Part shown: piece by piece, positions 6,888 to 52,117 of the stretch
Layout of the letters: each line of letters begins with the position of its first letter
How positions within the stretch are numbered: the stretch's first letter is position 1
From: an uncultured cyanobacterium
GTDB lineage: Bacteria; Cyanobacteriota; Cyanobacteriia; Leptolyngbyales; Leptolyngbyaceae
Assembly: GCA_963766075.1 (NCBI GenBank)
Contig: CAVYAN010000012.1
Coordinates: 37,507 to 101,506, forward strand
Length of the DNA: 64,000 nt
Direction: 5' to 3'
Program-made: the position numbers and the translations under genes
Notes under the pieces: model-generated
What the model was told of the DNA's origin: nothing
The model's database searches: none
Seen by the model: the letters and a program-made list of their open reading frames with translations, nothing else

Positions 6888-7444
6888 AAAGCGCACCGTT
6901 AGATAACCTCCGGGAGAATCCGGTTCAGCGCTTGCTGCTGAATTGTGCCGTGACGGCGGGGTCGGTGATGCTGTGCCTGTTGATTATGCCGACGCGCTTG
7001 CCGGGGATGGAATTGGCTGGGATTGGCCCCAATTGGCTCCTGATCTGGGTGGTGGCCTGGAGCGTGAAGCGTTCCATGTTCCAGGGGGCCTTGGCAGGGT
7101 TAGTTCTGGGGCTCCTGCAAGATGGAATGACGGCCCCGGACCCGACCCATGTGCTGAGCCTAATCGTGGTGGGTGTGCTGACGGCCCGCATTCGTAAAGA
7201 GCGCTACATTCAGGAAGACTTTATCTCCATTGCCCTGATTGCCTTTGCCATGGCGGTGGTATCGGAGACGGTGATGGCGATTCAGTACAGCATTGCTGGG
7301 GAGCGATCGCTGATCGAAATCTGGCAATACCACCAACTGATTGCCCTCAGTTCTGCGATTTTGAGCAGTCTCTGGGCGCCTGCGATTTACTTCCCGCTGA
7401 ATCTTTGGTGGCAGCGGATGAGCGCCATAGAACAAGCGCCATAG
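6884..7444 (+). CDS. mreD: rod shape-determining protein MreD
   Basis: Hydrophobic, ATGA-coupled to mreC, PNWLLIWVVAWS motif. Confidence 0.92.
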   Translation: MKSAPLDNLRENPVQRLLLNCAVTAGSVMLCLLIMPTRLPGMELAGIGPNWLLIWVVAWSVKRSMFQGALAGLVLGLLQDGMTAPDPTHVLSLIVVGVLTARIRKERYIQEDFISIALIAFAMAVVSETVMAIQYSIAGERSLIEIWQYHQLIALSSAILSSLWAPAIYFPLNLWWQRMSAIEQAP

Positions 7445-7459
7445 AACGCGCCATAGAAC
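7422..7459 (+). repeat. GCGCCATAGAAC x3 spanning the mreD stop codon
   Basis: Copies at 7422, 7436 and 7448. Confidence 0.85.
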
Positions 7460-7552
7460 AGAACACCCGTAGGCATTACAGGGCGCTCCTCCGATCTGTC
7501 GGAAAATTTAGTCAGTCGGAGCGAGCAGTCGGGAAATTAGTCAGTCGGGAAA

Positions 7553-8098
7553 TTAGTTAGTCAGACCTGTGGCCAGGATGGCCTGCCGGATGGCCTGTTT
7601 CTGGGCCTCATCATAGTCCCAGCGAGTTAAGAAGGCTTGGTACTCGCCTGCGCCCGTATCAATGCTGGTGATGAGCTGGTGGGCCTGGGTTTGCAGGTGA
7701 GGACGGGGGAGAGACTGGATCAACCGCAGGGTCCGCGATCGCACCCGATCCGATCCCTGGGCTGAGGCTTCATCGTCGTGGCGGCGGTGGGTGAGAGCCA
7801 TGGCCGTGGACATGGCCAAATTCTTCATCAGTAAGGGACTCACCGTTGTGGGTGATGCTGCCAGGGCCGTAGCCACCGACGGAAGCAGAGGCTCCATTGC
7901 GGGGCGATCATCACTCAAATACACGACAAAAAAGCCCCGTGCACCATTTTCGGTGCGAACCAGGGCCGCGATTGCGGCTGGCCAATCCACTAGAGCCGGA
8001 GTCTCCGCTACGGCTTGCTCTAATACCTCTTGGCTTAAGGTCATCGCCTGCTCAAAGCTTGGAGCTTCTGGCACGATAAATCTTGAGTCAACTGTCAT
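7553..8098 (-). CDS. conserved cyanobacterial hypothetical protein
   Basis: MTVDSRFIVPEAPSFEQAM...NGARGFFVVYL...LMKNLAMSTAM; the longer 7553..8623 ORF overlaps ruvB antisense. Confidence 0.7.
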   Translation of the reverse strand: MTVDSRFIVPEAPSFEQAMTLSQEVLEQAVAETPALVDWPAAIAALVRTENGARGFFVVYLSDDRPAMEPLLPSVATALAASPTTVSPLLMKNLAMSTAMALTHRRHDDEASAQGSDRVRSRTLRLIQSLPRPHLQTQAHQLITSIDTGAGEYQAFLTRWDYDEAQKQAIRQAILATGLTN

Positions 8099-42566: not shown

Positions 42567-42678
42567 GAATTGTTCTTAGTCTGGGGTGAGGTGGATAGTC
42601 ATGGGATGAGGCGATCGCGATGGGGCCGAGTCTTTGCATTATAGCAAGGGCGATCGCGGCTCTTTGGGACCGCAGAAC
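42567..42678 (-). repeat. 112-bp direct repeat copy 1 (promoter + dead parD 5' end)
   Basis: Near-identical to 43905-44016; encodes MTIHLTPD*EQF. Confidence 0.9.
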
Positions 42679-42740: not shown

Positions 42741-43010
42741 CTAGGGAAAGTATCGATAAAATTCGCAACGATGCATGACTCGCATGAGTTCGAGCTCATT
42801 ATCGTGGAGTCTGAAGCCAAGGCGGTAATCTCCTAGTCGAATGCGGTAATGGCCGGGATAGCCAACCATGGCTTTGATGTTGGGGATGTCTTGCAGCTTG
42901 GCTAATTCCGGTAAGGTGTTGAAGGCGAGGTCATGGATGCGATCGTACAGATCGGTTTTCTTGAGCTTTTTGAGGTCTTTCAAAAACAGCTGACGATAGA
43001 CAACCTTCAC
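42741..43010 (-). CDS. RelE/ParE family toxin
   Basis: FLKDLKKL...YRIRLGDYRLG...HRCEFYRYFP. Confidence 0.88.
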   Translation of the reverse strand: MKVVYRQLFLKDLKKLKKTDLYDRIHDLAFNTLPELAKLQDIPNIKAMVGYPGHYRIRLGDYRLGFRLHDNELELMRVMHRCEFYRYFP

Positions 43011-43237
43011 TCTGAGAGTGCCTCCAGATAGGCGAGAGCTGCTTCTCGATCAAGCAATGGAGTTGTTTCTGCTTCAATCATGGCTTGGTGGAGGCAGTAG
43101 TCTTCAATCGCGTCGGTAAAGTCTTCAGGCGTGGGTTGAGTCGTGAGTCCGGGAAAGAGCTTACGCCAGAGGTCGATGGGGATGACGACGGCTGTGGGCT
43201 GTCCGGTGGCATCGGTGAGGTATTCCAGGTCAAACAT
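43007..43237 (-). CDS. putative antitoxin
   Basis: YLTDATGQPTAVVIPIDLW...IEDYCLHQAM; overlaps the toxin start. Confidence 0.75.
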   Translation of the reverse strand: MFDLEYLTDATGQPTAVVIPIDLWRKLFPGLTTQPTPEDFTDAIEDYCLHQAMIEAETTPLLDREAALAYLEALSE

Positions 43238-43392
43238 GGGAACCTTGGCGGATGGGAATACTTTTATTATGCCTGATCGCCTGTGGTCGATGGTGCTGCG
43301 GAAGCCAGGGCGATCGCGGCTCTGAATCCCAATCTAGAGATTGCAGTGCCTCAGGAATTTCTCATGACTAGGAACGAGAGAATCTCTCCAGC

Positions 43393-43683
43393 TTACAGAA
43401 ACAGCTTTGGCAAATCCCGCCTTCCACTCAGAACACGCAAAATTTCAATCTCATCTTCTAAAAGCCGATAAAAAATGACGTATCCAGACCAAGAAATTCC
43501 ACGCAAACCCGTTTTCAAGTCATCGTAAGCCTTACCACTCATGGGGAAAGCAGCGATTTGTTGGCATTTATGGTCGAATTCTTGCAAAAATCGATCGGCT
43601 AAATCCAAATCCAAGTTGGCTCGATATTCTGCAATCGCTTCAAGGTCACGGACGGCTCGGCTATTGAGAACGTATCGGCTCAT
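43393..43683 (-). CDS. parE: ParE family toxin
   Basis: AVRDLEAIAEY...FPMSGK...YVIFYR...ILRVLSGRRDL. Confidence 0.9.
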   Translation of the reverse strand: MSRYVLNSRAVRDLEAIAEYRANLDLDLADRFLQEFDHKCQQIAAFPMSGKAYDDLKTGLRGISWSGYVIFYRLLEDEIEILRVLSGRRDLPKLFL

Positions 43684-43940
43684 GGTTTACTTTGCTTGGC
43701 GACCTGTAGGCGGTGTCGAAGCTGATTGATAAAGGTGGGACCGTCGATCGCGGGTTCGGTTGCGGCATAGGCTTCGTCGATCGCGGGCCGGATATTTTCT
43801 AGCCAGTCTGCTTGTGTCGTTTCATGATCTTGGAGAAGTTGCAGGGCGGTGGCGAGAACTTCTTCGGCACTTTGGTATTGACCGGTTTGGACTCGAGACT
43901 GAATGAATTGTTCTTGGTCTGGGGTGAGGTGGATAGTCAT
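43680..43940 (-). CDS. parD: ParD family (RHH) antitoxin
   Basis: MTIHLTPDQEQFIQSRVQTGQYQSAEEV. Confidence 0.88.
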   Translation of the reverse strand: MTIHLTPDQEQFIQSRVQTGQYQSAEEVLATALQLLQDHETTQADWLENIRPAIDEAYAATEPAIDGPTFINQLRHRLQVAKQSKP

Positions 43941-44016
43941 GGGGTGGGGCGATCGCGATGGGGCCGTGTCTTTGCATTATAGCAAGGGCGATCGCGGCTT
44001 TTTGGGACCGCAGAAC
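43905..44016 (-). repeat. 112-bp direct repeat copy 2 with extended -10 (TGCTATAAT) between two HIP1 sites
   Basis: Matches 42567-42678. Confidence 0.9.
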
Positions 44017-44074
44017 GGCTTCCTAGCGAAGGGAGGCGTCCACGGATAATCGTCATGTCCCAGTTATGGGGTGA

Positions 44075-44327
44075 ATGGGGCGATGTTTCGGCGCGGCGGC
44101 TACATCCACCCTAACTGCGGGCAACTTGACCCACCGCTCTACTAAGCCACCCCATCCGGTTTGATTTTCGGATATTGGCGGACTGACATCGCGGGAGCAG
44201 GTCTGGACTCTTCGAGGACACGCTCGCACCATTCCCCTGGCCCGACTCTGGAAATGAAGAGTACTGGGAACTACCGACGCCACACACCACCACCCGAGAA
44301 CCGCAATTGTTGTTGCGGTTGGCAGAA
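44075..44327 (-). repeat. second, truncated copy of DGR TR 3' part + downstream spacer
   Basis: Highly similar to 45169-45446, with an internal deletion between the repeated CGCAAC units. Confidence 0.88.
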
Positions 44328-44524
44328 GGGAAAACTTACGCCGCGTAGTAATAGGCAATACAGCATTCTCTCAATAGAATCGATCGGCGCATATCGTAGA
44401 TTAACTTAATATTTACTTAATACTTATTTTAACCACCACGCCGCCGGGTGTGGTTAGAGTGGTCGATGAGTAACGATGAGTTTAAATTTTGAGTTTTAAA
44501 TTTTGAGTTCTAAATCTTAGGAGA

Positions 44525-45039
44525 ATGCCAATGCGATCGTTACACCCCCTGTGGTTTGTCAGTAGCATCATTTGTCTAAATTTAGGGTGGGCCCAACTGC
44601 CAGCAACTGCCAAAGATGCCGCCGCCCCAGAAACTCCTGCTCTGCTGCCGCCCAAGAGCCTGCTGCTGTCCCCCACGTCTACCCGCCAGAAGTGCTCAAG
44701 CAACTCAGCGAAATGAACGGTAACTGCGAGGCTAACGAGGCGAAGCAGCAGCTCTGTAAATGCACCATTAACGAAATTCAAACGCGATATACGGCTGACG
44801 AATTTATTGCCCTCATGAGTGAGAAAAACGCGCAGCCGAGCACCTTGTCTGCGATGCCGACGCCAACCGGCAATATGCTGAAGGATGCTCTAGCGACCAA
44901 AGCATGGTTAGAGCAGAATGGCTTAGCCACCAGTGACGGCACTCCGACTAGCGGTTCTATGGACAGGATGCTGTCAATCTCTATGCCCGCTCCGATCGCC
45001 GCGATTATGCAAAGTTGTCAAGAAAAAGTCACTAAATAA
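44525..45039 (+). CDS. secreted Cys-containing hypothetical protein, probably frameshifted at about 44645
   Basis: Signal-like MRSLHPLWFVSSIICLNLGWAQLPATA in one frame; YPPEV...C...CKCTINEIQ..YTADEF in another. Confidence 0.55.
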
Positions 45040-45356
45040 CGGGTTCGGCAGGAATCGCTGACAGCGTCATTAATTTCACCGACACGCCATTCGATCCATA
45101 GCCTCCTAGGCTACATTCCCAAACGGGAGCTTGGGAGCGCGGTTAAACGAGGGAATGCCGGGGGTTAGATGGGGCGATGTTTCGGCGCGGCGGCTACATC
45201 CACCCTAACTCGGGCAACTTGACCCACCGCTCTACTAAGCCACCCCATCCGGTTTGATTTTCGGATATCGGCGGACCGACATCGCGGGAGCAGGTCTGGA
45301 CTCTTCGAGGACACGCTCAGACCATTCCCATGGCCCGACTCTGGAAATGAAGAGTA

Positions 45357-45486
45357 CTGGGGGAACCACCGACGCCACACACCACGACCCGAAAACCGCA
45401 ATTGTGGTTGCGATTCCCGCGCGTATTGTGGTTGCGGTTGGCAGAACGGCAATACACAGGATTGTTGATCCAAGAACCGCCGCGCC
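45357..45486 (-). ncRNA. DGR template repeat (TR), followed by a spacer to about 45169
   Basis: 130-nt ungapped match to VR; AAC/AAT-rich; 13 of 14 mismatches at TR adenines. Confidence 0.92.
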
Positions 45487-45562
45487 CGTTTCTACCTCCT
45501 GCCCCAGCCTTTACCCTAGGGGACAATGGGCCGGAGTGCCCCAAACGTATTAAAAATTTTCG

Positions 45563-45581
45563 ATCCGCGCAGGGCGCGGAT
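45563..45581. promoter_or_regulatory. DGR target-recognition hairpin downstream of VR/IMH
   Basis: ATCCGCGC-AGG-GCGCGGAT, 8-bp GC-rich stem, about 45 nt after the target stop. Confidence 0.75.
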
Positions 45582-45623
45582 AACGGAGGGCAAAGGGGAA
45601 AAGAGCAAGAGTGTAAAGGGATA

Positions 45624-47606
45624 CTAAAGAACCCTGGGGGAACCACCGACGCCACACACCACGACCCGAAAACCGCAATAGTGGAGGCGAAGCCCGCGCG
45701 TAACGTGGTTGCGGGCGGCAGAACGGCAATCCACAGGATCGAGGAACCAAGAACCGCCGCGCCTTATTTTATACTCAGTATTTCCTCCGGCAAGCCAAGC
45801 TGTTCCGTCGCTGGGCGCGTTCTGGTAATTGTCGTGCCAGTTATCCTCGCACCATTCCCAGACGTTGCCATGACAGTCAAACAGCCCCCAGGCATTGCCC
45901 GGAAAACTGCCGACAGGGGTGGTTTGCTTGGCGAAATTCACCCAGTTCCCTCGACCATACTTACGGAATAGGTGGTGCCTTCATATTTCCAATCTTGTGC
46001 GTCGATAATTGGCGATCGCCGCATCAATCGTGTCTCCAAAGTGAAACGGCGTAGTCGTTCCGGCCCGACAGGCATATTCCCACTCGGCTTCACTGGGCAA
46101 GCGATAGCGTTTCCCGGTGTGGGCGGTGAGGCGATCGCAAAACTCCACCGCATCGTCCCAGGACACTTGTTCAACGGGGCGATCATCACCCTTAAAGTTT
46201 GATGGATCGGGATTTAATTCCCGCTGCTGTTGCTTGAGGCTGGCGACGGCCCGCCACTGGGCTTGGGTGACGGGATATTTGCCGATGAAGAAGTCGGGCA
46301 CGGTGACGCGATGAATCGGCTTTTCATCGTCATATTCATTCGATCCCATGTCGAAGCTGCCGCCGCGAATCTGCACTAAGTCGAGGGCGACACCGTTGAT
46401 GGTTTCGCGGTAGTAGTGGGCGGTGCCAGAGTGTTTTTGGATCTTGAGTTTCGCATCAATAGTGGCGTATTCAAACTTGAAGGTGGGAAGGGCGGTTGGC
46501 GCTCCCTCCGCTTTCTGGTCCCCCCCTTTTGAAGGGGGGCGAGGGGGGATCACCACGCTGGGCGAGGAGTCAGCGATCGGCTGCGTTCCAGATTTTGATC
46601 CCCCTAAATCCCCGCGCTGTCGCGCCGCTTCGCTAGTAAAAAGGGGGAGTTCAGACGTAGGTTGGGGCTGAGGGCTAGGCGACGGGGTGGGTTGTCTTAA
46701 CTTCAGCGTCAACTCAACAATCTCATCGAGCGCCTCACGGATCCAACGCCCCGACTGGCAATATTCACCCGTAGCCAACATTGCAAAGCCAACCGCAAAT
46801 CTCCCCGATTCTCCGCCCGAAACGCATCCATCTTCAGCATGTCCAAATCCTCCGGGCGGGCATGGGTGGGCATCAGAATCAAGTGGGATTTGCTGATCGG
46901 TTCCGCAATGGCATAGGGCACCTGCTGCGCGCGATCGCCCACACACTCCCGCACCACCTCCGGCACTCGCCGCTGCAAATACGCATCCAACCGCGCCACC
47001 GTCGCACAGCGCCCCTGCACCCCCAACCCCTCCAGCAGCACCTTGGTAAACGCCCCCTGCCCATAGCTCGGCAACTCATAGGAAAACTGATTCGGACTAC
47101 AGGAAAACAAACTAATCACCCCCGTCTGCCGACAACCACTCCTGCGTCTCGTCGCCAATGCCTTTGCCATCCTTAATGCCACCACTGCGACAGGCATCCA
47201 AAATCATCACCACATTGTCCGCCCCACAGCCCCGCAGCCACTCCGAAATCTGCGCCGTCGCAATCCCCGACTCAGCAATGTCATCCGGATCGCCATCAAT
47301 CGGCATCAAGAAATCGCGCTCCCCATGGCGCATCCCATGCCCACTAAAAAAGAACCAAAAGTTATCGCCATCGCCCATAAACGGTCGCGCAAACGTATCC
47401 CGCATTACCCGACGCAGATTGTTTCGCGTCGGCTTCATGGCCACCCCATTCACCGCCGGGGCATCCTCCGCGAAATAGTAGACGCGATCGAACTTCGCCT
47501 CCTGCTCCAGAAACGTCTTCACCGCCAATGCATCCTGCTGGGCATACTGGAGCGGTTGCAGAAACTCGTACCGATTCACGCCAATGACGATCGCTTCGCT
47601 AGTCAT
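45624..47606 (-). CDS. caspase-like peptidase C14 + FGE-sulfatase (CLec) DGR target protein; about six apparent indels
   Basis: FSGHG and ILDACR dyad; [48 protein letters not shown]; indels near 47134, 46740, 46004, 45964, 45946, 45930. Confidence 0.85.
45634..45763 (-). repeat. DGR variable repeat (VR) at the 3' end of the caspase-FGE gene
   Basis: Encodes [34 protein letters not shown]. Confidence 0.92.
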
Positions 47607-47992
47607 TCATCCACTCGCTTAAACTTCAGCTTAATCGACCCCTTGGTTTCCGCCTTGCCCCCGGCAATCAGCTTCACTTCCCCACTGGCCGTAATTTCAA
47701 TCGCCATCTCCACCTCCTCCAGCTTCAAGCGTGAAGTCTTGCCCATGGGTGCTTCAGCCGTCGTCAGTTGGGCCTGCTGCTCCGCCTGCCGAAACAACCG
47801 CCCCACCAATCCCAAAAACTGGCCCATCTTCTGTTCCAGTTCCACGACGCTAATCCGCCGCGCCGCCGCGAGCTTGTCCAGCATCCCGTCCCGCAGATTG
47901 CCGCCCTTTCTCACGGCCCCGGTTGGATCAGTGGTTTCGTCCTCACTGACCACGACCCACAAGAATTCGTCGCGATCGTCCGCCATAGCCAT
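47603..47992 (-). CDS. Pepco/Trypco-like peptidase co-occurring small protein
   Basis: LKLEEVEMAIEITASGEVKLIAGGKAETKGSIKLKFKR; ATGA-coupled to the caspase gene. Confidence 0.7.
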   Translation of the reverse strand: MAMADDRDEFLWVVVSEDETTDPTGAVRKGGNLRDGMLDKLAAARRISVVELEQKMGQFLGLVGRLFRQAEQQAQLTTAEAPMGKTSRLKLEEVEMAIEITASGEVKLIAGGKAETKGSIKLKFKRVDE

Positions 47993-49905: not shown

Positions 49906-49962
49906 TTGCCCCCCATTGCTCAGACGCCCAAAAACTACGCCCAAAAACGACGCCCAAAAACA

Positions 49963-50811
49963 ATGACACAGTTAAACGAAGCCGTAGTGCTGATCACAGG
50001 AGCCGCAGGCGGATTTGGCCAGGAATTAACCCGCCAGTTGTTAGCCGCCAATAGCCACTTGATTCTTACCGATCGCGATGCCGCTGGACTACAAGCCAAT
50101 GTGACCCAGATTCAACAAGCGGTGCCAACGGGGAAGGTATTGGCCTGTCTAGCAGCGGATCTGTCCAGTCGCGAAGGCTGTGAAACCCTGTATCGGGAGG
50201 CGATCGCCCTGGGGGTCGCGATCGACATTGTGATTAACAATGCAGGCATGGGCCTCTTTGGTCGCATGGATGAAGTGCCCAGCGAGCACTGGGAACGCCT
50301 GATGCAGGTTAACCTCCTGGCCCCCATGCGCTTAAGTGCCCTCTTTGCCGCCGATATGATTGCCCGCCGTCGGGGCCATATCGTCAATATTTCTTCCCTC
50401 GCGGGCTGGGTCGCCACAGCCGGGTTGACGCACTATGCCACCAGCAAATTTGGCCTGCGGGGATTCAGCGAAGGGCTGCACCAAGAAGTCAAACCCTACA
50501 ACGTCCAGGTCACGGCGGTCTATCCCTTTTTTAGTCGCACGCCCATTCTCCAGTCCCCCCGCTACGGCACCCTGGCCCAGGGCATGGAAACGGAGGGCTT
50601 AGACGGCTTTCCGCCCCAACTGGCCACGGATCCGGTACGGGTGATGCGGTCTACCCTGCACGGCATTCGCCGCAACCAATTGCACGTTTTTCCGGATGCG
50701 ATCGCCCAAATTTCACAGCACCTCAAACGCTATACCCCGCAACTACTGGGCTGGATCACAGCCACATTCACCCGAAGGTTCACCCATGGTACTCACCAAT
50801 CCCGGCCCTAG
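49963..50811 (+). CDS. SDR oxidoreductase
   Basis: TGAAGGFG, INNAG, YATSK. Confidence 0.9.
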   Translation: MTQLNEAVVLITGAAGGFGQELTRQLLAANSHLILTDRDAAGLQANVTQIQQAVPTGKVLACLAADLSSREGCETLYREAIALGVAIDIVINNAGMGLFGRMDEVPSEHWERLMQVNLLAPMRLSALFAADMIARRRGHIVNISSLAGWVATAGLTHYATSKFGLRGFSEGLHQEVKPYNVQVTAVYPFFSRTPILQSPRYGTLAQGMETEGLDGFPPQLATDPVRVMRSTLHGIRRNQLHVFPDAIAQISQHLKRYTPQLLGWITATFTRRFTHGTHQSRP

Positions 50812-52117
50812 TGCCCTAGCGCAACTGGATACCCGATCCAAGCATTTGATTATCGGGGCGGGCTTTGTCGGTTTGGGCATGGCCCAGGCCCTGCAAGCGG
50901 CCAGTATTCCCTACGACCAAGTCGATGCCAGCGATGCCATTGGCGGTAACTGGCATCACGGCGTCTACGAGACAGCCCACATCATCTCATCCCGCAGGAT
51001 TACCCAATTTACGCACTTTCCCATGCCCGCGCATTATCCGGACTTTCCCAGTGCCCAACAAATGTTGGAATACTTGAATGCTTTTGCCGATCAGTTTGAA
51101 CTCCGTCAACGGATTGAACTCAATCGATTTGTCAAATCAGTTCGCCCCATTGAAGATAACGAATGGGAAGTCATTTTTTCAGACGGTCAGCGGCGAATTT
51201 ATAAAGGCATCCTCCTGTGTAATGGCCATCACTGGAGCGAACGTTTCCCGCAATTTCAAGGCCAATTTAACGGTGAACTCATCCATTCCAAAGCATACAA
51301 ACATCCCGATCAATTACGAGGAAAACGGGTGCTGGTGATTGGGGGCGGCAACTCCGCCTGCGATCTGGCCGCAGAAGCTGCACGGGTAGGCAAAACAGCG
51401 GTGCTGAGTCTGCGCGAATCAGTCTGGTTTATCCCCAAAACCTTTGCCGGAGTGCCGATCGCCGATTTGATTCAGTGGTGGATGCCCGTTTGGTGGCAAC
51501 GGCTGATGGCCTATGGCATTATTCGGCTCAGCTTTGGCCACCATGGGTACTATGGCCTGCCCCAGCCCCAGTACCCCATATTTGATAAGCACCCCACCCT
51601 GAACAATGAAGTGCCCTACTACATCAAACACGGTCGGATCACACCCAAGCCTGGGGTAAAACGGCTCGACGGAGAGCAGGTGGAATTTGTCGATGGCAGT
51701 CGGGCCGCCTTTGACCTGATTGTTTGTGCCACCGGGTTTAACGTTTCCTATCCCTTTTTGCCGCCAGAACTGCAACGGGTCCAAGGGCCGGTAGTCCAAT
51801 GCTACGGGGGAGCCTTTCTGGATGACTACAAAGGACTCTACTACATCGGGTGGGGACAGGCACGCGGGGGCGTGGGCTCACTGATGTCTGCCTATGGGCC
51901 TCGATTTGCCCGGTTGCTTAAACTTCAGGATCAAATCAAGGTGCCTTTAGGACTCGTGTTCAAAACCATGGGACAACAGTTTCCCACCACCCATCTCGCC
52001 GATCCACAGCAGATCTTCAGGCAATTGAAGTTGCTGGATCTGGGGTTTGCTTGGCTAGAAAGGAAAGCGCGTCAGGTGGATGCGCAGCATGCCGAGTTTC
52101 GTAACCACAGACTTTAG
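50786..52117 (+). CDS. flavin-containing monooxygenase
   Basis: IIGAGFVG, FNGELIHSKAYK (FMO motif), VIGGGNSA, CATGF. Confidence 0.92.
   Translation: MVLTNPGPSALAQLDTRSKHLIIGAGFVGLGMAQALQAASIPYDQVDASDAIGGNWHHGVYETAHIISSRRITQFTHFPMPAHYPDFPSAQQMLEYLNAFADQFELRQRIELNRFVKSVRPIEDNEWEVIFSDGQRRIYKGILLCNGHHWSERFPQFQGQFNGELIHSKAYKHPDQLRGKRVLVIGGGNSACDLAAEAARVGKTAVLSLRESVWFIPKTFAGVPIADLIQWWMPVWWQRLMAYGIIRLSFGHHGYYGLPQPQYPIFDKHPTLNNEVPYYIKHGRITPKPGVKRLDGEQVEFVDGSRAAFDLIVCATGFNVSYPFLPPELQRVQGPVVQCYGGAFLDDYKGLYYIGWGQARGGVGSLMSAYGPRFARLLKLQDQIKVPLGLVFKTMGQQFPTTHLADPQQIFRQLKLLDLGFAWLERKARQVDAQHAEFRNHRL

Follow-up and report, generated by a model that had tools for sequence, protein, structure and literature searches.

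The window analysed here is a 64-kb stretch of genomic DNA from an uncultured cyanobacterium of the Leptolyngbyaceae (positions 37507-101506 of contig C12, in an assembly of 126 contigs that is 85% complete). It holds a variable repeat (VR) and a template repeat (TR) of the kind made by diversity-generating retroelements (DGRs), next to one another and away from any gene for the DGR reverse transcriptase (RT) or Avd. All features are on the minus strand unless stated otherwise. The target gene (45624..47606) encodes a caspase-like (C14) peptidase, a linker and an FGE/CLec domain (Pfam C14 and FGE-sulfatase), and a gene for a Pepco adaptor lies directly upstream of it (47603..47992; Pfam PF24393, E 2e-21; 69% identical to the Pepco of the orthologous locus L188, described below). 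In this assembly the target gene appears as four open reading frames (ORFs), with single-base indels near 47138, 46748, 46737 and 46006-45929; its ortholog at L250:12190-14025 is one intact ORF of 611 aa. Behind the target gene come a DNA hairpin, the TR (45357..45486) and a spacer (45167..45356).

The VR and TR pair

The VR (45634..45763) occupies the 3' end of the CLec coding region. On the coding strand it was aligned to the TR over 130 nt without gaps, at an offset of 277 nt, and 14 mismatches were counted. Thirteen of them hit an adenine of the TR (six A>T, four A>C, three A>G); the remaining one was a T>G change (TAT>GAT at 45731). With 22 adenines in the 130 nt of the TR, the probability of at least 13 of 14 mismatches falling at A is 2.5e-11 (hypergeometric); expressed per site, 13/22 TR adenines differ versus 1/108 of the other sites. 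The alignment given in the initial annotation, with its 13 of 14 differences at TR adenines, was thus reproduced on realignment (p 2.5e-11), and all eight of the codon changes named there were found. The VR ends in a segment resembling an IMH site (where mutagenic homing is initiated), followed by the stop codon (45624..45633), and this segment was confirmed by comparison to diverge from the 3' end of the TR as in other cyanobacterial DGRs (IMH versus IMH*). The DGR origin of the pair is established. The TR is private to this locus and has eight AAY motifs in a GGSW-anchored core.

The hairpin after the VR (45563..45581) is GC-rich, with 8 bp and a 3-nt loop, and is preceded by a pyrimidine tract and followed by an A/T run. 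Its presence had been reported before and was borne out by the DNA fold (z -3.6 versus shuffles); the gap from hairpin to TR, earlier put at ~75 nt, measured 77 nt. An equivalent hairpin is found at the same place at L188 and in two other DGR targets of the same assembly (on contigs C38 and C117, see below).

The predicted template RNA

The template RNA would consist of a 5' leader, the TR and the spacer. A possible -10 box of a promoter of its own is the TAnnnT-type hexamer at 45513..45518, which matches in position a hexamer at several RT-linked loci; a consensus promoter scan of the window did not pick it up. The leader (45496..45505) is conserved across loci and, in the minimum free energy fold, pairs with 45287-45294 to form a putative cDNA-stop duplex. 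The spacer was scored against a model built only from 27 RT-linked spacers, whose consensus structure shows compensatory change in 30 of 37 pairs. The window spacer reached 99.8 bits over all 158 model positions, and that of the full DGR on C38 114.1 bits. The single-sequence fold of the window template RNA (z -3.0) closes a long-range helix between leader and spacer. Within the spacer are predicted a template:primer duplex of 7 bp (45349-45355 with 45300-45306), a 9-bp GNRA-capped stem-loop (45317-45338), a stem-loop followed by an A run (45264-45283) and a terminal helix with an enlarged inner hairpin (45240-45250 with 45167-45177).

In the Bordetella phage template RNA (bioRxiv 10.1101/2023.10.23.563531), a 7-bp template:primer duplex, a 9-bp Avd-binding GNRA stem, a stop duplex and a stem-loop with adenosines are present, and all have predicted counterparts in the window RNA. 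The window spacer differs from the Rfam RT-14 and Bordetella RNAs in its enlarged terminal hairpin. It gave no Rfam hit at E 0.1 (the gathering threshold of RT-14 is 48.1 bits); the spacers of two other loci of the same layout, L031 and L195, scored 46.4 and 44.0 bits against RT-14, just under that threshold. The window template RNA could thus be structurally able to work. The bit score of the spacer was considered as a sign of a living cassette and dropped, since collapsed (fused) loci score equally high and the score therefore does not show an RNA at work.

RT and Avd in the assembly

The earlier statement that the window has no RT or avd gene was upheld by tblastn, which gave no RT or Avd match in the 64 kb (best E 1.8), and no RT or avd stub or remnant was seen in the 77 nt at the junction of hairpin and TR. 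A search of the whole genome for a DGR RT and Avd returned one complete avd-RT DGR, on contig C38, consisting of a CLec target, a hairpin, avd, RT, a TR with spacer and a second target. The avd gene matches Pfam bAvd (E 1e-19, below the curated cut-off of the family) and the RT shares 65-67% identity with the RT of an intact cyanobacterial DGR that served as query. It was the only DGR-type RT found in the assembly by RVT_1 hits and the RT query. The other RVT_1 matches, at C27:18802-19464, C17:102806-103267 and C38:27988-28161, lie in open frames of 628, 638 and 90 aa and are not DGR-like by the RT query.

The C38 TR fits both targets of its own locus and also a remote one on C117 (13 A and 3 non-A mismatches). 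Its TR and spacer are ~71% identical to those of the window. Aligned with the C38 TR, the window VR shows 16 non-A mismatches and 14 gap columns, versus one non-A mismatch with the local TR. The C38 TR cannot template the window VR, which was therefore written from the local TR. Remote targets are recognised by a VR that matches the TR of a full DGR at non-A sites, and the window VR does not. Of the marks of a degenerate locus, the machinery is indeed missing, and neither recent derivation from a sister locus nor an RT or avd remnant, nor inserted repeats standing in for these genes, was found.

Frameshifts and contigs of relatives

Frameshifts were found in 7 of 92 gene entries tested. Two of the affected genes, which look DNA ligase- and aspartokinase-like from their translated N-termini, carry two frameshifts each; uncorrected assembly errors are likely for this reason, and those of the target gene and the C38 RT are probably errors of the same kind. 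Outside the poorly aligned linker, the window target has no substitution-type stop in 604 aligned codons. The C38 RT, which has one frameshift in this assembly, also carries an in-frame insertion of ~20 aa (~51480-51570), which resembles a palindromic repeat.

Assembled contigs of relatives from the public runs X1, X2, X3 and X7 were compared with the locus (40 of ~690 differences were listed). An X1 contig spans 45417-45701 with 13 differences and no gap (95% identity), and an X3 contig spans 45522-45927 with 38 differences and no gap (91% identity). A contig of X1 also joins the end of the spacer to the same unrelated ORF as in the window (44572..45039), with 9 differences over 263 nt. At 47139 the window has an extra base that the X2 and X3 relatives do not share. 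One X2 contig skips exactly the 277-nt interval between VR and TR, which may be an assembly short-cut.

Orthologous loci without RT

A collinear locus (L188) was found in genome G087, from another genus of the same family. It comprises Pepco, caspase-CLec (one ORF of 611 aa), VR, hairpin, TR and spacer, and is 71-81% identical to the window in nucleotides and 88% identical in amino acids over the caspase part. VR and TR are spaced 278 nt apart (277 in the window) and have 17 mismatches at A and none elsewhere; the flanks, over 6.1 kb upstream and 5.4 kb downstream, contain no RT or avd. Two intact DGR RTs are present elsewhere in G087, and the TRs of both do not match the L188 VR. The window and L188 TRs differ in 24 non-A columns, including a 3-nt indel, and at 24/24 of these each VR carries the letter of its own TR (21/21 when the comparison was made with a pairwise aligner). 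This tracking indicates that retrohoming continued after the lineages split. In the priming duplex, both strands have changed in a compensatory way between the window and L188 or L249.

In the tree of spacer loci the window groups with L188, L249 (G233) and L272 (G252), with support 98/86, and every member has the VR-to-TR layout. RT and avd were absent from all three members with a long downstream flank; L272 stops at a contig end. G233, which is 93% complete, yielded neither a DGR RT nor an Avd. A further ortholog (L265 in G006) has the same target and has lost the TR. Neither a CLec nor a spacer is near the caspase-domain orthologs in G050, G048, G018 and G066. In a DNA search of 400 genomes of the class, with two candidates per genome scored, no template was closer than ~75% over its length; a pattern search of the same 400 genomes returned only G006, a pattern scan of metagenome contigs for the 3' ends of VR and TR gave three loci, none similar to the window, and a scan of viral contigs gave 0 matches.

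Survey of the spacer family

Spacers were sought in 150 genomes of the class, each at least 95% complete. Thirty-nine had a spacer (71 matches) and 23 a DGR RT. The spacers distant from an RT were examined except G034:C317, at a contig end, and 12 compact cassettes, laid out as in the window, were counted in 11 genomes (7 of the 23 RT-bearing genomes versus 4 of the 127 without RT). Among 89 genomes of the family, 33 had a spacer, 18 an RT and five a compact cassette, three of these five with an RT elsewhere; G097:C651 is left out of these figures and a 724-nt case in G009 is not counted.

A set of 108 distinct loci, deliberately enriched for RT-distant ones, was sorted into 40 full DGRs with the RT upstream, three full DGRs with the RT downstream, 21 remnants, 22 compact, 13 fused and 9 TR-only loci, the last four labels having been defined after the loci were seen. 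All but one of the taxonomically labelled loci with this spacer belong to Cyanobacteriota. In the fused forms (L048, L049, L060, L175, L179, L181, L182, L186, L190, L193, L205, L207 and L214) the CLec gene leads without a break into a spacer that is intact, the product that recombination between VR and TR would be expected to give. TR-only loci have no matching VR, RT or avd within ~5 kb (for instance L046, L084, L174 and L200; some of the nine are at contig ends). A further full layout, with avd-RT divergently transcribed upstream of the TR, was seen at L191, L273 and L275.

A tree of 109 rows was built from loci with at least 230 nt upstream, a whole spacer and a recognisable TR start. Compact loci cluster in it (11 changes versus 17.9 when labels were shuffled, 0/500 shuffles); RT/avd remnants (220/500) and fused forms do not. 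An earlier tree of 74 rows, labelled by a loose 'no RT' category, showed no clustering (314/500 shuffles); the clustering emerged only once the compact, fused, remnant and TR-only classes were told apart. Besides the clade of the window, two compact groups, one of 7 rows (support 98/96) and one of 10 (89/95), have no RT-bearing member. Within compact groups the VRs follow their own TRs at 60/63, 279/304, 111/111 and 24/24 pairwise differences, the pairs not being independent. Spacers of compact loci (22 matches at 20 loci) pair in 93.5% of cells and change on both sides in 28/37 pairs; the alignment was fitted to the model, and these figures lean toward it.

The 12 compact cassettes with an RT elsewhere in the genome have 0-2 non-A mismatches. 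G183 and G143 are assemblies that combine a single full DGR with a compact cassette. Four compact cassettes have at least four, and all four are in genomes in which no DGR RT was found. Drifted cassettes are thus 4/10 without a helper versus 0/12 with one (one-sided p ~0.03, or 0.06 if the sisters L080 and L112 are counted once). Caspase-like N-terminal domains, often with Pepco upstream, are encoded at 9/22 compact cassettes, namely the window, L030, L076, L183, L187, L188, L197, L201 and L202.

Origin of the cassette

Between the two possibilities raised in the initial annotation, a non-autonomous mini-DGR that borrows its machinery and a decayed DGR, the former is favoured for the lineage by the helper on C38, the intact predicted RNA and the concerted evolution of VR and TR, which fall short of proof. 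We lean, with fair though far from full confidence, to reading the locus as a non-autonomous, RT-less satellite DGR cassette serviced in trans. The claim concerns the lineage and not present-day activity. In such a satellite the target-specific parts would all come from the cassette: the caspase-CLec gene, which carries the VR and is followed by the hairpin, and a private gene for the template RNA (leader, TR and spacer), which may be transcribed on its own. RT-Avd would be borrowed from a full DGR elsewhere, here that on C38, and would recognise the conserved structure of spacer and leader, not the TR sequence. The TR would then be reverse-transcribed with errors at adenines and the cDNA would replace the VR 277 nt upstream. 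The presumed outcome is a caspase-like protein whose ligand-binding tip varies, plausibly the sensor-effector of a conflict system. The timing of RT loss at the window locus we infer rather than observe. For a wider proposal our confidence is evenly balanced: that cyanobacteria carry widespread non-autonomous DGR satellites persisting across genera, with one RT-Avd serving several unrelated templates in the manner of short interspersed nuclear elements (SINEs), that these freeze or collapse once their helper is gone and start up again when one is regained, and that Pepco/caspase-CLec is a recurrent cargo.

Several results weigh against the satellite. Of the 7 entries that carry frameshifts in this assembly, 4 are DGR genes, and they include the window target, the C38 RT and the second C38 target. 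The junction filler (~45 nt) is not conserved between the window and L188. Ten of the 22 compact cassettes are in genomes without a found DGR RT, six of these having at most two non-A mismatches, and no Avd was found either in the five RT-less genomes with compact cassettes that were tested. A clean pair is therefore no proof of a helper, and G014, which is 100% complete and has no DGR RT, likewise has clean pairs, beside an RT stub. Zero non-A mismatches were found in 10/22 compact loci, 6/16 remnants and 36/49 full DGRs, which places compact loci nearer to remnants. Fused forms are themselves enriched in RT-bearing genomes (p 0.011) and compact and fused forms do not differ significantly in their co-occurrence with RT (p 0.27), so that co-occurrence with a helper was rejected as proof. 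The difference in mismatches with and without a helper was likewise not significant (p 0.20, 12 versus 7 loci).

The most serious competitor, which we regard as possible and on balance unlikely, is a recent relic: an ordinary DGR, whose avd-RT stood either downstream of the spacer or in the gap between hairpin and TR, would have worked in cis during most of the divergence, and avd-RT would have been lost recently and independently in each lineage, leaving the cassette frozen. Three intact DGRs (L119, L234 and L235) do combine the same VR-TR junction and spacing with an avd-RT that follows the spacer downstream, and in L209 this layout survives as a deletion remnant; the three intact ones sit in another clade than that of the window. 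DGR decay is common in the set, as the remnant and fused loci attest, clean pairs occur in genomes without any DGR RT, and the ortholog in G006 has no TR at all. A similar case, all3226, is taken as a removal of the machinery in PMC7517822. Against a relic stands the need for repeated clean losses, as no RT-bearing member is known from the window clade (3/3 flanked) or from the two other compact groups. Deletions elsewhere often leave an RT or avd stub, whereas none is detectable here, and the X1 relative already has the spacer joined to the same unrelated ORF.

That the cassette was formerly serviced and is now dead in this strain, its indels and those of the C38 RT being real and the system pseudogenising, is improbable. 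The frameshifts in three DGR genes, the C38 RT insertion and the decayed second template 1.1 kb away would fit; the paired frameshifts in two unrelated genes point instead to assembly errors, and the lack of substitution-type stops in the aligned codons of the target and the relatives without the base at 47139 speak against it. Ordinary gene conversion between repeats only 277 nt apart, in place of retrohoming, is more improbable still. Collapsed VR-spacer forms exist and one X2 contig skips the interval, perhaps by an assembly short-cut, yet conversion would equalise A sites too, and the excess of differences at A in the window recurs at L188. An assembly artefact that dropped avd-RT between hairpin and TR deserves almost no credence: the assembly is incomplete, in many contigs and with indel errors, but an independent X1 contig bridges the junction and L188 has equal spacing.

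Relation to known systems

The satellite reading sets the locus apart from described DGRs in a few respects. Cyanobacterial chromosomal DGRs with CLec/FGE-sulfatase targets (PMC7517822; lineage 4 of PMC5758913; Trichodesmium, PMC4143802) share with it the CLec target, the C-terminal VR, an orthocaspase-like N-terminus, the hairpin, a template RNA with a promoter of its own (putative in the window) and the spacer family. The window locus differs in having no avd or RT, and in a TR that stands directly behind the target hairpin and is private to it. Remote DGR targets are known from Treponema, and 73 non-adjacent (PMC5758913) and 76 remote (PMC7517822) cases have been counted. They are likewise diversified by machinery elsewhere, and the C117 VR, which matches the C38 TR, is the conventional case in this genome. 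Remote targets borrow RT and TR; the window cassette has its own template and would share only the proteins. Function of avd, TR and brt in trans from a plasmid is described in PMC5758913.

Degenerate or incomplete DGR loci include DGR 1, 3, 4, 5 and 7 of Thiohalocapsa PB-PSB1 (PMC10907252), the partial DGRs of DUSEL4 (PMC4372165) and all3226 of Nostoc PCC 7120 (PMC7517822). Like the window they lack RT, and they are discussed as fossils or as trans-diversified. For PB-PSB1, trans activity is accepted where a VR matches the TR of a complete sister (DGR 4/5 with DGR 2), unlike the private TR of the window. In none of these loci, as presented in the accessible text, does a VR track a private, diverged TR across orthologs that lack RT. 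Across the literature consulted, which also included PMC8867640, PMC12691664, PMC6642488, PMC4159848 and bioRxiv 2024.11.15.621889, RT-less loci and remote targets are taken for fossils or for loci served by a sister with a matching TR. No published description of private-template satellites was found in a literature search that reached few subscription papers. Caspase-type effectors and adaptor genes beside CLec sensors are proposed conflict systems in PMC10907252. Published DGR searches are anchored on the RT (within 5 kb in PMC7517822) and, according to PMC8144416, remote cases are missed.

If the satellite reading is true, RT-anchored surveys would miss such cassettes, which hold 12 of the 71 template spacers in the 150-genome sample, and the number of hypermutated cyanobacterial genes would be underestimated. 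Template choice by RT-Avd would then depend on spacer structure and not on co-location or TR sequence, and the window and C38 templates, given their divergence, would be a natural pair for a direct test of that choice. The reading also bears on the origin of new DGR targets and on the multiplexing of DGR-based mutagenesis tools. If the locus is only a relic, it illustrates ordinary DGR decay.

Flanking genes and repeats

Downstream of the cassette lies a second, decayed template copy (44068..44330; 94.5 bits), which retains the last ~55 nt of the TR and the whole spacer, is 94% identical over 256 nt to the TR and spacer of the cassette, and lacks the 5' part of the TR and the leader. At two sites where the window TR may have changed after the duplication the change is common to the VR, which hints weakly at retrohoming at a later time. 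The unrelated plus-strand ORF (44572..45039), without an assigned function, separates the two spacer copies and had no Pfam match and only weak Atlas look-alikes (best 0.82); it is probably the 3' part of a frameshifted gene that starts near 44525 and has a hydrophobic N-terminus. An unrelated compact cassette in G006 (L030) also has a second, decayed spacer (7412-7564) ~1 kb downstream, with an unrelated gene between.

Further downstream are two type II toxin-antitoxin pairs (RelB-like/ParE and ParD/ParE by Pfam; 42741..43940), and toxin-antitoxin-like genes are also found downstream of the orthologs L188 and L265. The block in the window is bordered by direct repeats (42612-42678 and 43950-44016). 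On C38 a block of genes (~49960-50610) likewise lies between direct repeats, with the start of avd duplicated; overall the repeats are ~35-67 nt. Such repeat-bordered blocks suggest insertion of gene cassettes with long duplications at DGR loci. The linker of the window target (46500-46650) is longer than that of the ortholog through an insertion in the coding sequence that resembles a palindromic repeat.

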